This document shows positions 4,352 through 23,894 of a stretch of 24,000 bases of DNA, one piece after another; the first letter of the stretch is position 1; each line of letters opens with the position of its first letter. The stretch is taken from assembly GCF_000620105.1 (NCBI RefSeq), contig NZ_KK211072.1, positions 28,275 to 52,274 on the forward strand, read 5' to 3'. Source of the DNA: Microvirgula aerodenitrificans DSM 15089. Lineage in GTDB: Bacteria > Pseudomonadota > Gammaproteobacteria > Burkholderiales > Aquaspirillaceae. A program made the position numbers and the translations under genes. The notes beneath the pieces were generated by a model, which worked only from the letters and a program-made list of their open reading frames with translations, was not told the DNA's origin and ran no database searches.

Positions 4352-4518
4352 GGTCGTCAACGAGTACGAGTAATCAAAACGGGGCCATTCTAGCCGGTTA
4401 CGGCGGGAGCGTCTGCCGCATTAGTGGGCACCCCGGCCGGTCTGCACCAGCAAAGGGCAGACCGGCAGCGGAATGCCTGTGCCGGCACCCCTCCGGGCGC
4501 GAGGGCCCGCAATCAAAC

Positions 4519-4548
4519 GGGGGGACTGCCGTTTCCGGCAGTCCCCCC
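4519..4548 (-). terminator. GC-rich hairpin downstream of hpf (candidate intrinsic terminator)
   Basis: Perfect 12-13 bp stem (ggggggactgcc / ggcagtcccccc) around a 4-6 nt loop, about 70 nt after the hpf stop. On the minus strand it is followed by GTTTGATT, which is a weak U-tract. Confidence 0.5.
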
Positions 4549-4616
4549 CTTTCAGTCAGGCCTGAGCCAGCGGCACGACGACCGCGGGCGCTTGCCCTTG
4601 TGAGTCTTCTTCAGGC

Positions 4617-15803: not shown

Positions 15804-18381
15804 CCAGCGCACTGCCCGCCAGCCGGCCGCGCGAACGCACCGCGACCAGCCGAAGGCGCCGTACTCCGCGCCGCGTGGTGGCAACCAGAAGCCGTTTGGC
15901 CGCCCGGAAGGGGAAGCGGGCCGTGGCGCGCCGCGCCAGGGCGGAGATCGCCCGGCCTACGGCGGCTCGCGTGATGACGACCGTCGTCCGTCCGGCCCGC
16001 GTGGCGAGGGCGGCTTCAGCCGTGGCCCGAAGCCGTTTGGCGACCGTGCGCCGCGCCAGGGCGGGGATCGTCCGGCCTATGGTGGCCCGCGCCAGGGGGG
16101 AGACCGTCCGGCGTTCGGTGGCCCGCGTGACGGCGGTGACCGTCGTCCGTCCGGCCCGCGTGGCGAGGGCGGCTTCAGCCGTGGCCCGAAGCCGTTTGGC
16201 GACCGTGCGCCGCGCCAGGGCGGGGATCGTCCGGCCTATGGTGGCCCGCGCCAGGGGGGAGACCGTCCGGCGTTCGGTGGCCCGCGTGACGGCGGTGACC
16301 GTCGTCCGTCCGGCCCGCGTGGCGAGGGCGGCTTCAGCCGCGGCCCGAAGCCGTTTGGCGACCGCGCACCGCGTCAGGGCAGTGACCGCCCGGCCTATGG
16401 CGGCCCGCGCGGTGATGGTGATTTCAACCGTGGTCCGAAGCCGTATGGCGACCGTCCGCCGCGTCAGGGCGGTGACCGCCCGGCCTATGGTGGCCCGCGT
16501 GACGGCGGCGACCGCCGTCCGTCCGGCCCGCGTGGCGACAGTGATTTCAACCGGGGTCCGAAGCCGTATGGCGACCGTCCGCCGCGTCAGGGCGGTGACC
16601 GCCCGGCCTATGGTGGTCCGCGTGACGGCGGCGACCGTCGCCCGTCCGGCCCGCGCAGCGACAGCGGCTTCAGCCGTGGCCCGAAGCCGTATGGTGATCG
16701 TCCGCCGCGTCAGGGCGGCGACCGTCCGGCGTTCGGTGCTCCGCGTGACGGCGGCGACCGCCGTCCGTCCGGCCCGCGTGGCGACAGTGATTTCAACCGT
16801 GGTCCGAAGCCGTATGGCGATCGTCCGCCGCGTCAGGGCGGCGACCGTCCGGCGTTCGGTGCTCCGCGTGACGGCGGCGACCGCCGTCCGTCCGGCCCGC
16901 GCAGCGACAGCGGTTTCGGCCGTGGTCCGAAGCCGTTCGGTGACCGTGCACCGCGTCAGGGCGGGGATCGCCCGGCGTATGGTGGCCCGCGCGACGGCGG
17001 CGACCGCCGTCCGTCCGGCCCGCGTGGCGACAGTGATTTCAGCCGGGGTCCGAAGCCGTATGGCGATCGTCCGCCGCGTCAGGGCGGTGACCGCCCGGCC
17101 TATGCTGGTCCGCGTGATGGCGGCGACCGCCGTCCGTCCGGCCCGCGTGGCGACAGCGATTTCAACCGCGGTCCGAAGCCGTATGGCGACCGTCCGCCGC
17201 GTCAGGGCGGGGATCGCCCGGCCTATGCTGGCCCGCGTGACGGCGGCGACCGCCGTCCGTCCGGTCCACGTGGCGACAGTGATTTCAACCGCGGTCCGAA
17301 GCCGTATGGCGATCGTCCGCCGCGCCAGGGCGGCGACCGCCCGGCCTATGCTGGTCCGCGTGATGGCGGTGACCGCCGTCCGTCCGGCCCGCGCGACGGT
17401 GGCGACCGTCGCCCGTCCGGCCCGAAGCCGTTCGGTGGCGAAGGCAATGCCTATCGTGGCCCGAAGGCAGGCAATGGCGGACCGGCGGCAAGCCGCCCGG
17501 GCAGCTATCTGCCGGTGCTTCGTGCCAAGAAAATGCCGCAGCGCCATCTGTCGGGCAAGCTTGAGCAGAAAATGCTGAAGCTGCGCGAAACACGTATCGA
17601 CCCGAACAAGGGGCTGCACGAAATGCGCCTGCAGAAGGCGCTGGCACTGATGGGGCTGGGCTCGCGTCGCGACATGGACGAGATGATCACCCAGGGCCGC
17701 GTCAGCGTGAATGGCGAAGTGGCCGAACCGGGCACGCGCGTCGTGCCGGGTGACAAGGTGCGCGTCGATGGTCGCCAACTGGCCATCCGCTGGCCGGACC
17801 GCCTGCCGCGCGTCATTGTCTACCACAAGCAGGAAGGCGAAATCGTCACCCGTGACGACCCGGAAGGCCGGGTCACGGTGTTCGAGCGTCTGCCGCAGAC
17901 GCGCTCCAGCAAGTGGGTCGCCGTTGGCCGCCTCGACGTCAACACTTCCGGGCTGCTGATTTTCACCACCTCGGGTGAGCTGGCGAACCGGATGACGCAC
18001 CCGAGCTTTGAAGTCGATCGTGAATACGCCGTGCGCACACTGGGCGCGCTGACGCCGGATCAGATGAAGGAATCGACCCGGGACATCGAACTCGAGGACG
18101 GACCGGCGCGCTTCCAGTTCATCCGCGAGGAAGACGACAAGGAAGAAAGTGCGAACCACTGGTACCGTGTCGGCCTGCGCGAAGGGCGCAATCGTGAAGT
18201 CCGTCGTCTGTTCGAACACTTCGGCCTGACCGTCAGCCGCCTGATTCGTGTCCGCTTCGGCATCGTCACGCTGCCGTCGCGGCTCAAGCGCGGGCAGTTC
18301 TACGAACTCAATGAACTGGAAGTCGCCAAGCTGGTGCAGTGGGCCGGCCTGACGCTGGCCGGAACCAGCGACGACGCCTGA
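15781..18381 (+). CDS. rluB: 23S rRNA pseudouridine synthase RluB with a ~610-aa repeat-rich N-terminal extension
   Basis: The C-terminal ~250 aa form a canonical S4 domain ([31 protein letters not shown], from 17623) plus an RsuA/RluB catalytic domain ([29 protein letters not shown]). The ORF stays open in the same frame back to the ATG at 15781, which overlaps the scpB end by 23 nt. If the extension is not translated, the alternative starts are 17533 or 17623. Confidence 0.85.
15943..17436 (+). repeat. In-frame tandem repeat array inside rluB (12 units of 120, 159, 159, 90, 7 x 123 and 105 bp)
   Basis: Consensus 41-aa unit: [41 protein letters not shown]. Two 53-aa units carry one extra 12-aa GDRPAxGGPRxG module. 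Every unit length is a multiple of 3. I found no mismatch by eye between 16021-16179 and 16180-16338. Confidence 0.95.
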
Positions 18382-21364: not shown

Positions 21365-22594
21365 ATGGCCAGATATTCGCTCGACAAAGACAAGATCCGC
21401 ATCGTCCTGCTCGAAGGCGTGCACCAGAACGCGGTCGACGCGTTGCTGGCGGATGGCTACACCAATATCGTGCGTCATGCCAAGTCGCTGTCCGGCGACG
21501 CGCTGGCGGAAGCGGTCGCCGATGCACACATGGTCGGCATCCGTTCGCGTACCCAGCTGACCGACGCCGTTTTCGGTTCGGCGAAAAAGCTGATGGCGGT
21601 TGGCTGCTTCTGCATCGGCACCAACCAGGTCGATCTGGACGCCGCCGCCAGGCGTGGTGTCCCGGTGTTCAATGCCCCGTTCTCCAACACCCGCTCGGTG
21701 GCGGAACTGGTGATCGCGGAAACCATCATGCTGATGCGCGGCATTCCCGAGCGCAGCGCGCTGGCGCATCGCGGCGGCTGGCTGAAATCGGCCGATGGCA
21801 GTTACGAGGTGCGCGGCAAGACGCTGGGCATCATCGGCTACGGCCATATCGGCACCCAGACCGGCATCCTGGCCGAGAGCCTCGGCATGCGGGTGATCTA
21901 CCATGATGTCGAAACCAAGCTGCCGCTGGGCAATGCGCAGCCGGCTGCATCGCTGGCGGCACTGCTGGCGGCGGCCGACGTGGTCACGCTGCACGTGCCG
22001 GAAACCCGCGAAACGCAGAACATGATCGGTGCGCCCGAACTGGCGGCGATGAAGGCCGGCGCCAAGCTGATCAATGCCTCGCGCGGCACGGTAGTCGACA
22101 TCGATGCGCTGGCGGCGGCACTCAATGCCGGTCACCTGTCCGGTGCGGCGATCGATGTGTTCCCGGCCGAGCCGAAGGGCAATGACGACGAATTCCTCAG
22201 TCCGCTGCGCGGACTCGACAACGTGATCCTGACTCCGCATATCGGCGGCAGCACGGTCGAGGCGCAGGCCAATATCGGCGCCGAAGTTGCTGCCAAGCTG
22301 ATCCGCTACTCGAACAACGGCTCGACGCTGAGCGCGGTGAACTTCCCGGAGGCATCGCTGCCGGCGCATCCGGGCACCGCGCGGCTGCTGCATATCCACG
22401 AGAACCAGCCCGGCGTGCTGGCCGCCATCAACGAGACCTTCGGCCGGCTGGGCATCAATATCTCGGCCCAGTACCTGCAAACCACGCCGACGCTCGGCTA
22501 TGTCGTCATCGACACCGACAGCCCGGCGCCGGAAGCGGCGGTCGAGGCACTGTCGGCGGTGCCGGGCACCATCCGCTGCCGGGTGGTGTACTGA
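21365..22594 (+). CDS. serA: D-3-phosphoglycerate dehydrogenase SerA (with C-terminal ACT domain)
   Basis: 409 aa from the ATG at 21365. MARYSLDKDKIRIVLLEGVHQNAVDAL... aligns from residue 1 with my recollection of E. coli SerA (MAKVSLEKDKIKFLLVEGVHQ...). It also has CFCIGTNQVDLDAAARRGVPVFNAPFSNTRSVAELV and the NAD motif GIIGYGHIG. The track's TTG start at 21344 adds 7 unsupported residues. Confidence 0.95.
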   Translation: MARYSLDKDKIRIVLLEGVHQNAVDALLADGYTNIVRHAKSLSGDALAEAVADAHMVGIRSRTQLTDAVFGSAKKLMAVGCFCIGTNQVDLDAAARRGVPVFNAPFSNTRSVAELVIAETIMLMRGIPERSALAHRGGWLKSADGSYEVRGKTLGIIGYGHIGTQTGILAESLGMRVIYHDVETKLPLGNAQPAASLAALLAAADVVTLHVPETRETQNMIGAPELAAMKAGAKLINASRGTVVDIDALAAALNAGHLSGAAIDVFPAEPKGNDDEFLSPLRGLDNVILTPHIGGSTVEAQANIGAEVAAKLIRYSNNGSTLSAVNFPEASLPAHPGTARLLHIHENQPGVLAAINETFGRLGINISAQYLQTTPTLGYVVIDTDSPAPEAAVEALSAVPGTIRCRVVY

Positions 22595-22617
22595 CCGCGT
22601 CGTGACCGGTGCATGAA

Positions 22618-22649
22618 CAGACGCCCCCGTGATGAACGGGGGCGTTCTG
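22618..22649 (+). terminator. Hairpin immediately after serA (candidate terminator)
   Basis: 10-bp stem (ACGCCCCCGT / ACGGGGGCGT) with a 5-nt loop, starting about 25 nt after the serA stop. It is followed by only TTCTGG, a poor U-tract. Confidence 0.45.
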
Positions 22650-22663
22650 GACTGACCATCACC

Positions 22664-22817
22664 CCTTGCCTGAGAAGACCGGACGAGCGAAGCGAGGTTT
22701 CCCCGCGGCGGCGGGGACGGAAGGGGCAGGGCTCAATCAGGCAGACTGCCGTGCCCATGACGGATTCTGTCAGTCGGGCGTGCACCGACGCCACTGCAAC
22801 CGTCGGTGCCCACCTTT
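22664..22817 (+). repeat. Structured intergenic element, copy 1 of a tandem pair (period 179 bp)
   Basis: 22680-22817 is identical base for base to 22859-22996 (138 bp). The 16 bp to the left match 12/16. Internal hairpins: CCCCGC-ggcg-GCGGGG (22701-22716), GGCA-gac-UGCC, and GCACCGACG-10 nt-CGTCGGTGC (22782-22809) followed by CCACCTTT. Confidence 0.9.
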
Positions 22818-22842
22818 AATCAGCAGTCAGACCGTCCATAGA

Positions 22843-22996
22843 CCTTGCCCGCAAAGAACGGACGAGCGAAGCGAGGTTTCCCCGCGGCGGCGGGGACGGA
22901 AGGGGCAGGGCTCAATCAGGCAGACTGCCGTGCCCATGACGGATTCTGTCAGTCGGGCGTGCACCGACGCCACTGCAACCGTCGGTGCCCACCTTT
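22843..22996 (+). repeat. Structured intergenic element, copy 2
   Basis: See copy 1. Its terminal hairpin (22961-22988) ends 21 nt from the hslO stop codon on the opposite strand. Confidence 0.9.
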
Positions 22997-23009
22997 GCCT
23001 GCAGTCTGC

Positions 23010-23894
23010 TCAGTGCCGGGTCGGGCTGGCCGGCTCGATCGGGTCCTGCGGACCGGCGAACAGCTCGGCGGCATCGTCTTCGTCGAACACGTATTTCTGC
23101 TGACAGAATTCGCAGGCGATCTCGACGCTGCCCTGTTCGGACAGGATGCTCTCGACCTCGTCGCGGCCGATCATGCGCAGCATGCCGCCGACGCGCTCGC
23201 GACTGCAGCTGCACTGGAAGGCCACGCTTTCGGCGTCGAAGGCGCGGATGACTTCCTGGTGGAACAGGCGATACAGGATGTCATCGGCCGACAGCGTCAG
23301 CAGTTCTTCCTGTTTCAGCGTGGCGGCCAGTTCGCGCGCACGCGGCCAGTCATCCTCGTCACCGCTGCTGCCCGGCAGTTTCTGCAGCAGCATGCCGGCG
23401 GCGCAATCACCGTCGGCAGCCAGCATGATCAGCGTGTCGAGCTGTTCCGAGCGTTCCATGTAGTGCGTCAGCAGGCTGGCGACGCTGCCGCCTTCCAGTG
23501 CGACAATGCCCTGGTAAGGCTCGGCGCCGGCCTGTTTCGGATCGAGGGTGATCACGCACTGCCCCTGGCCGGTCAGGGTGGCGAGGTCGGCATCGGCCGG
23601 CAACTCGCCATCCCAGCGTGCGGTCGCGCGCAGGGTGCGCGTGGCCGCATTGACTTCCACCACCAGCAGTCGCAGTGCTCCCTGACCCTGGATCTGCAGG
23701 ATCAGCTGGCCGTCGAATTTCAGGTTGGCGGCCAGCAGGATGCCGGCGGCGGCCAGTTCGCCCAGGCGGTCGCGCAGCACCGGCGGGTAGTCGTGGCGGG
23801 CGTTGATCTCGCGCCAGCTGTCGTCCAGGCGCACCAGTGCGCCCCGGACCGGTGCCTCGTCGAACAGGAAGCGTTGCAGCGTGTCTTTTTTCAT
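23010..23894 (-). CDS. hslO: Redox-regulated chaperone Hsp33 (HslO)
   Basis: 294 aa starting MKKDTLQRFLFDEAPVRGALVRL. The C-terminal zinc/redox switch cysteines are present: C-x-C (FQCSCSRERV) and C-x-x-C (IACEFCQQKY). Confidence 0.95.
   Translation of the reverse strand: MKKDTLQRFLFDEAPVRGALVRLDDSWREINARHDYPPVLRDRLGELAAAGILLAANLKFDGQLILQIQGQGALRLLVVEVNAATRTLRATARWDGELPADADLATLTGQGQCVITLDPKQAGAEPYQGIVALEGGSVASLLTHYMERSEQLDTLIMLAADGDCAAGMLLQKLPGSSGDEDDWPRARELAATLKQEELLTLSADDILYRLFHQEVIRAFDAESVAFQCSCSRERVGGMLRMIGRDEVESILSEQGSVEIACEFCQQKYVFDEDDAAELFAGPQDPIEPASPTRH

Follow-up and report, generated by a model that had tools for sequence, protein, structure and literature searches.

A small gene-less element that duplicates terminator hairpins very probably accounts for the tandem repeat between serA and hslO in Microvirgula aerodenitrificans

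Introduction

Among the described systems, IS1630 and YPAL (Yersinia palindromic sequences) are the closest precedents for the element analysed here. De Gregorio and colleagues reportedly found in 2006 that YPAL inserts close 3' of stop codons, into targets overlapping rho-independent terminator-like sequences, that it is co-transcribed into 3' UTRs and that YPAL-positive transcripts accumulate to higher levels. Effects exerted from the 3' UTR (mRNA stabilisation, termination) have been reported for YPAL, REP and ERIC sequences. YPAL is ~168 nt long and occurs in tens of copies (PMC2267715). IS1630, an IS30-family element of Mycoplasma fermentans, duplicates a hairpin in a structure-directed insertion, with long, variable duplications of 19-26 bp (PMC2853133).

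New insertions of IS1272 (IS1182 family) are found on 22-30-bp inverted-repeat structures, two of three downstream of genes (PMC5678879); the target is picked by structure and not by sequence, and the inverted repeat is replaced, leaving no target duplication (Wan et al. 2017, PMC5678879). Target duplications of 16-28 bp are described for the IS1202 group (PMC10132070) and of 8-514 bp for IS1549/IS1634 (PMC2266710). Elements that duplicate terminators are absent from a 2024 review of prokaryotic MITEs (PMC10969869).

We analysed a stretch of 24,000 nucleotides of M. aerodenitrificans DSM 15089 (the window), in which two repeat units lie between a serA-like gene and hslO. We suggest that the pair is very probably formed by two adjacent copies of a ~181-nt, gene-less, non-autonomous MITE-like transposon that targets terminators and duplicates their hairpins. 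The element goes beyond an ordinary MITE in its structure-defined footprint, in having no visible transposase and in its order-wide covarying core, found in arrays 3' of genes.

The likeness to IS1630 is in the long, variable hairpin duplications, 19-26 bp there and 17-25 nt here; IS1630, however, is autonomous, has an IS30-type transposase and belongs to a mollicute, whereas the present unit is gene-less, 181 nt long and resides in a betaproteobacterium whose genome has no IS30-family transposase. YPAL, a miniature insertion of similar size and copy number, is the nearest functional analogue, but there is no sequence similarity, and YPAL is one long palindrome whereas our element consists of several separate hairpins. 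To our knowledge, neither tandem arrays nor an order-wide conserved core are known for YPAL. IS1272 likewise uses structure-chosen inverted-repeat targets downstream of genes, but it replaces the hairpin, which is cleanly duplicated here, in a genome with no IS1182-family transposase. The IS1202 group and IS1549/IS1634 resemble the element in their unusually long target duplications; IS1202-family ends are TGT...ACA, with no hairpin target reported, whereas the ends here are CAG...CTG.

The tandem pair in the serA-hslO spacer

The features of the window are listed below; a window coordinate is the coordinate on contig C6 of the draft genome minus 28274.

4501..4609, + strand: degenerate relic of the element family, right half only (nhmmer match C6:32775-32883, E = 9e-10, model positions 67-173)
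21365..22594, + strand: serA-like gene (D-3-phosphoglycerate dehydrogenase family), open reading frame, 3' end toward the element
22621..22645, no strand assigned: GC-rich stem-loop A-CGCCCCCG-tgatgaa-CGGGGGCG-T, placed 2 nt to the left of copy 1
22648..22830, + strand: element copy 1, ~182 nt (nhmmer match C6:50937-51103, projected 50923-51104)
22648-22654 and 22824-22830, + strand: ends of copy 1, left TGGACTG and right CAGTCAG
22683..22801, + strand: conserved ~120-nt core of copy 1 (covariance model R1 match C6:50957-51075, 92 bits), with the parts CGAGCGAAGCGAGG, hairpin A (22700-22717), G-rich tract, TCAATCAGG and hairpin C
22773-22777 and 22785-22789: hairpin C of copy 1, GTCGG / CCGAC
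22828..23008, + strand: element copy 2, 181 nt (sequence and nhmmer match)
22828-22834 and 23002-23008, + strand: ends of copy 2, left CAGACCG and right CAGTCTG
22862..22980, + strand: conserved ~120-nt core of copy 2 (covariance model R1 match C6:51136-51254, 92 bits)
23010..23894, - strand: hslO (Hsp33), open reading frame, stop codon 23010-23012

An earlier reading of this DNA by a model, made from the sequence only, had described a tandem pair with identical 138-nt cores between serA and hslO, and the re-read sequence agrees. A direct repeat of 154 nt (22664-22817 and 22843-22996) has 97% identity and a spacing of 179 nt, and within it the cores 22680-22817 and 22859-22996 are identical and head-to-tail. 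The 9-bp stem reported there, GCACCGACG/CGTCGGTGC, was found in both copies, and the description of the element as noncoding holds as well, the period being no multiple of 3 and the copies varying by indels. The unit length of ~154 bp is too short. Alignment of 33 genomic copies with their flanks sets the left end at CAGACTGTCCAT... and the right end at ...ATGAGCAGTCTG; conservation reaches past the 154 nt, and the full unit is ~181 nt, the tandem period. The left margins and the 25-bp spacer that had been described as diverged are, with a unit of this length, arms of the element itself. Terminal inverted repeats, none of which had been seen, are present: 7-12 nt, CAGACTGYYCAT / ATGRGCAGTCTG (CAGACTG...CAGTCTG), or CAGACTG(YYCAT) on the left and (ATGAG)CAGTCTG on the right.

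Copies 1 and 2 overlap by 3 nt where their ends join (CAGTC-AGACCG), and the CAGTCTG end of copy 2 is 1 nt off the hslO stop codon. The hslO gene points toward this end, so that a transcript from it would run into the two copies in the direction opposite to the + strand of the sequence-only reading. The stem-loop at 22621-22645 is locus-specific, kept in all strains and the sole terminator-like hairpin at the locus; no second copy of it was seen between copy 2 and hslO, and since there is one hairpin only, a target duplication cannot be shown at this site. In other strains the serA-like orthologue has 409 aa with the Pfam domains 2-Hacid_dh, 2-Hacid_dh_C and ACT, and the hslO product is an identical protein of 294 aa with Pfam HSP33.

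Each unit contains the word GACTG four times. Two occurrences mark the ends, the one on the right being inverted, and two are internal, one in GGCAGACTGCC and an inverted one in GTCAGTCGG. The internal pair ranks among the most invariant columns of the element alignment and could be bound by the mobilising enzyme.

Strain variation and identity of the two cores

The serA-hslO spacer carries one copy of the element in two strains, two copies in four strains (window included) and three copies in one. The one-copy allele joins the left margin of copy 1 to the right margin of copy 2, and in the three-copy allele the same junction occurs repeatedly; unequal crossover would be expected to yield both forms. 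Within a strain, the cores differ at 0-2 of ~131 positions in the window, in L047 and in L042 (copies 2 and 3), and at 4-6 of ~131 positions in L043 and L046, while orthologous copies differ at 2-10 positions from strain to strain. The perfect identity of the cores is therefore the outcome of recent, strain-specific homogenisation and not of conservation, probably by gene conversion or unequal crossover. The one-copy allele L044 has a 15-nt internal tandem duplication (GGGGCAGGGCTCAAT twice) in the G-rich tract of the element.

A dispersed family in the draft genome

The genome is a 4.04-Mb draft of 58 contigs with 64% GC. BLAST of the unit against it gave 52 matches, iterated nhmmer with a core model gave 64 (33 on the + and 31 on the - strand), and nhmmer with the arms included in the model gave 81 matches, ~35 of them nearly complete, which represent 72 loci and both strands. 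The sequence-only reading had offered, as its second choice, a genome-wide intergenic repeat that landed twice in this spacer. These counts make that alternative essentially right, with three refinements: the repeat is a mobile element with inverted repeats and hairpin-length duplications, it recurs in tandem arrays, and the identity of the two cores arises via homogenisation. Deletion derivatives of 69-138 nt retain both ends. Tandem arrays of 2-3 units were detected at six further loci of the genome, with periods of 151-179 nt and varied junctions.

Genomic context was assigned with crude GC3-based gene calls. At least one gene 3' end adjoins 34 of the 37 loci. At 25 of 34 loci the gene located no more than 200 nt away is read into the CAGACTGCTCAT end, which is on the right in the orientation of the sequence-only reading; this bias (25:9) is strong, not absolute. 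T-runs are found on the distal side only at 12 loci and A-runs on the proximal side only at three. An open reading frame between two inverted element copies on C1 matched no Pfam family. At C17:32517-32714, a 22-nt piece of the element's left end, CAGACTGTCCACAAGCGTCGCG, is located beyond the right-hand hairpin copy, which suggests a former second copy or a duplication running past the hairpin.

Duplicated terminator hairpins at the insertion sites

At least 11 solo copies are abutted at both ends by locus-specific direct repeats of 17-32 nt, each of which is a stem-loop. The six strictly bounded copies have duplications of 17, 22, 24, 24, 24 and 25 nt; in all six, RNAfold pairs the first base with the last, and a T-run follows five of the six, on one side only. 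The duplication is therefore a locus-specific inverted repeat that varies in length and in sequence.

The site 3' of an M48 peptidase gene provides empty and filled alleles. The empty site, present in six independent assemblies of other strains, reads ...ATGAAA-GCAGCCACGGGCAACCGTGGCTGT-TTCTTTTGCC and contains a single intrinsic terminator. The filled allele, in the genome of the window and in one other strain, consists of the hairpin, the element as CAGACTGCTGAT...(181 nt)...AACAACCTG, the same hairpin and TTCTTTTGCC, the tract after this second hairpin reading TTCTTTT there. Filled and empty alleles differ by 205 nt, equal to 181 + 24, with unambiguous boundaries. The target duplication is thus the whole 24-nt stem-loop; the T-tract is not duplicated and stays with the distal copy. 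The polymorphism at M48 could be a recent gain, or a precise loss instead. Among the five solo loci checked in other strains, M48 was the one that is polymorphic, and the other four were filled in every strain seen, so that most insertions are old or fixed. Insertion takes place at the stem-loops of intrinsic terminators, shortly 3' of genes. Taken together, the element has a length under ~300 nt, carries no gene, is present in many copies and shows inverted repeats and target duplication with an empty site, as MITEs do.

Proposed mechanism

We propose that a transposase acting in trans, not encoded in this assembly, recognises the CAGRCTG ends. The footprints suggest that the target, extruded as a hairpin or cruciform, would be cut at its two feet, after which gap repair would leave the hairpin on each side of the element. 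After insertion the proximal hairpin is left with no T-tract, so that read-through from upstream is expected; transcripts of the upstream gene probably continue across the element and stop at the distal hairpin. Carried along in the 3' UTR, the element would for most copies be transcribed as the strand complementary to the + strand of the sequence-only reading, and the same would apply at the serA-hslO locus if hslO is the source. Array copy number probably shifts by unequal crossover, and gene conversion may have made the cores in the window identical.

Searches for an autonomous partner

Self-BLAST of the 58-contig draft, in all but one contig of 1,677 nt, revealed no autonomous partner. Neither this search nor two scans of the draft genome, one for CAGACTG...CAGTCTG pairs bordered by repeats and one for hairpin duplicates at distances of 80-4000 nt, returned anything but the ~181-nt elements; two apparent matches in the inverted-repeat and duplicated-hairpin scans were coding repeats. 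A paired 12-mer end scan for a partner gave too much noise. Family searches found no IS1182, IS30, DDE_Tnp_1 or Y1 transposases in the draft genome; the IS30 profile NF033563 had one sub-threshold match of 22 bits, to an IS3-type gene. Matches to the rve domain were considered as partners, and those assigned to a family belong to the IS3 and IS481 types, which differ from the element in their ends and duplications. Ten of the 13 readable contigs under 3.3 kb were examined and contained no transposase. A distant search of plasmids found no related element or partner, and two exact patterns had no match in 185,000 species genomes.

Relatives of the core across the order

BLAST against the 48 closest relatives gave no match. 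Among 400 genomes of the order, BLAST detected eight genomes in four other genera, matching only element positions ~31-97. The module shared with these genera is built from CGAGCGNAGCGAGG, a GC hairpin whose loop is GGCG, and a tract rich in G, and occurs in tens to more than 100 copies per matching genome. Very often 2-5 units follow one another head-to-tail at periods of 148-182 nt; the units of one array are alike, and different arrays have in common just the module and a second hairpin. The right-hand gene reads toward the module at 13 of 15 loci, at a distance of 14-68 nt, the same bias as in Microvirgula.

We aligned 28 sequences of the core (alignment A2). The two hairpins are paired in 93.6% of cells, against 79% in shuffled alignments and at most 60% when the pairing is slid, and eight of the 14 pairs have changes on both sides, with 55 doubly changed cells and two wobble cells. 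The covariance model R1 of the 120-nt core matched over its full length in 12 of the 151 genomes sampled, representing 10 of the 97 genera (~10%), including all three sampled genomes in each of two families of the order. A core with two covarying hairpins that is common to other genera is likely to be the part needed by the mobility machinery or by a host factor.

In one genus (G089) what is dispersed is the core on its own, sharply delimited and lacking a visible duplication, and solo copies in G089, G249 and G173 showed no hairpin repeats at their flanks. A genome from another family of the order (G142) has a ~174-nt element, two copies of which lie in perfect locus-specific stem-loop direct repeats of 20 and 21 nt; it ends in ...CAGCAGCCTG, CAGRCTG-like and resembling the right end in Microvirgula. 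Hairpin-duplicating insertion and CAGRCTG termini are thus common to at least two families of the order. A literature search for the module sequence gave no relevant record. At the loci in other genera (L110-L144), hairpin A is followed on the + strand, in most of the genera, by four closely spaced G-runs, for example GGGCGGGGCGTAGGGGTGGGG; they are a possible G-quadruplex motif, weaker in Microvirgula.

Alternative explanations

The element may be mobile and its ~120-nt core nevertheless kept for what it does in cis to the transcript, as a 3'-UTR module for mRNA stabilisation or termination. We regard this as possible, though on balance unlikely. The copies lie 0-70 nt past stop codons with the same orientation bias here and in the other genera (25 of 34 and 13 of 15 loci), the insertion removes the T-tract of the proximal hairpin so that read-through is expected, and the two hairpins of the core covary across genera (93.6% of cells paired against 79% shuffled, 55 doubly changed cells). 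The higher transcript accumulation reported for YPAL is a precedent. However, the changes between genera are nearly all from one Watson-Crick pair to another (55 cells, against two wobble cells), a pattern that constraint on DNA, for instance on a hairpin or a site bound by protein, would explain no less well than constraint on RNA. The element spacers, moreover, diverge about as fast as synonymous sites or faster at three of four loci, with small counts. The constraint on the core may reflect either mobility (DNA level) or a 3'-UTR role (RNA level).

The Microvirgula element might also be one branch of an order-wide, undescribed family of ~120 nt with two hairpins, the partner enzyme being supplied in single copy by the host or from elsewhere (REPIN/RAYT-like, with different chemistry), or the core being a functional 3'-UTR RNA or DNA module; we put this forward as a speculative proposal, rather unlikely in our judgement.

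It is very improbable that the family is a REP/BIME-type repeat, spread by a single-copy RAYT or kept as a host-protein binding site, and no classical MITE. Such repeats are also intergenic and GC-rich with conserved hairpins; the clusters or arrays, the lack of a partner insertion sequence in our searches and the persistence across several families of the order would agree with them. But the genome has no Y1/RAYT transposase (PF01797, no match), the 181-nt unit has inverted repeats and target duplications, which REP/REPIN elements lack, and the arrays are head-to-tail and not alternating.

The sequence-only reading had preferred tandem sibling sRNA genes of the PrrF1/2 or neisserial type, each with its own promoter and terminator and acting in trans on mRNAs. 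Like the neisserial and pseudomonad sibling sRNAs, the pair is made of tandem, near-identical, structured ~150-nt units in an intergenic spacer, head-to-tail with identical cores, and MITE-derived sRNAs are known in other bacteria (PMC10969869). Structure was evaluated in several ways. Folding of single sequences did not beat shuffled controls on either strand (z = -0.8 and -0.9), and RNAalifold on 35 genomic copies gave a poor consensus except at hairpin A. In 30 genomic copies, three short hairpins are paired in 93% of cells, with six doubly changed pairs against 1.0 in shuffles, and one-sided changes favour G-U on the + strand, 33 to 15; these counts in the genomic copies would suit an RNA, but they are of related copies and not of independent events, and for this reason we give the hairpin and wobble statistics little weight.

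A simple scan of 22450-23150 found no sigma-70-like promoter, in agreement with the sequence-only reading, and no terminator-like site. The statement that the sequence is no known Rfam family is supported (best E = 3.6 in the window region), and eight loci in other genera had no Rfam match at E <= 0.1. The sibling sRNA reading is extremely unlikely, since such sRNAs are confined to one or two loci that are dedicated to them and equipped with promoters and terminators of their own, whereas here ~80 mobile copies are dispersed on both strands over 72 loci (dozens of copies in both orientations being what the reading itself had named as pointing to a REP/MITE-type family), copy number at serA-hslO varies from 1 to 3 among strains, the core identity comes from homogenisation, and most copies are placed so that the neighbouring gene would transcribe the opposite strand.

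Significance of the hairpin-duplicating element

For annotation, the units of the mobile element should be treated as a repeat or mobile-element family and not as sRNA genes. The element accounts for the length polymorphism of intergenic spacers among strains, and it explains assembly breaks, because Logan contigs end inside it. Its footprint is unusually clean, the duplication being exactly the stem-loop, of any length or sequence, and it adds a high-copy proteobacterial case to the few known examples in which DNA shape decides the target. With filled and empty alleles occurring naturally, the effects of such insertions on termination and mRNA stability can be tested. The covarying 120-nt core, present in several families, absent from Rfam and accompanied by no visible transposase, is a lead to a new enzyme-repeat partnership or to a cis-acting module.

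Other repeats in the genome

A link to the neisserial DNA uptake sequence was considered for the CAGTCTGAA end, which resembles GCCGTCTGAA; CAGACTG occurs only 604 times in the genome, a count judged close to chance, and the idea was therefore dropped. A repeat family of ~1.65 kb from the self-BLAST, examined as a partner, turned out to be methyl-accepting chemotaxis protein paralogues of 80-91% identity:

C6:14335-15992
C49
C14:42770-44411
C16:54225-55865
C16:77055-78706

The paralogue at C16:77055 directly abuts the element copy C16:76930-77063. At C1:11063-11187, 125 nt between CAGACTG-like words are flanked by a perfect 32-nt direct repeat, CAAAGGAGAAATAGAGGAGAAACTACATCGAA; the segment has no match to the element family and is probably an unrelated tandem duplication. 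The duplicated-hairpin scan additionally detected CRISPR arrays with the repeat GTGTTCCCCGCG(T/G)ACGCGGGGATGAACCG at ~61-nt spacing (C6:91440-92566, C6:100779-105648 and C3:184120-184269). The window itself contains GC-rich direct repeats at 16453-17264 (C6:44727-45538) with a 123-nt period and hairpin-like words inside.
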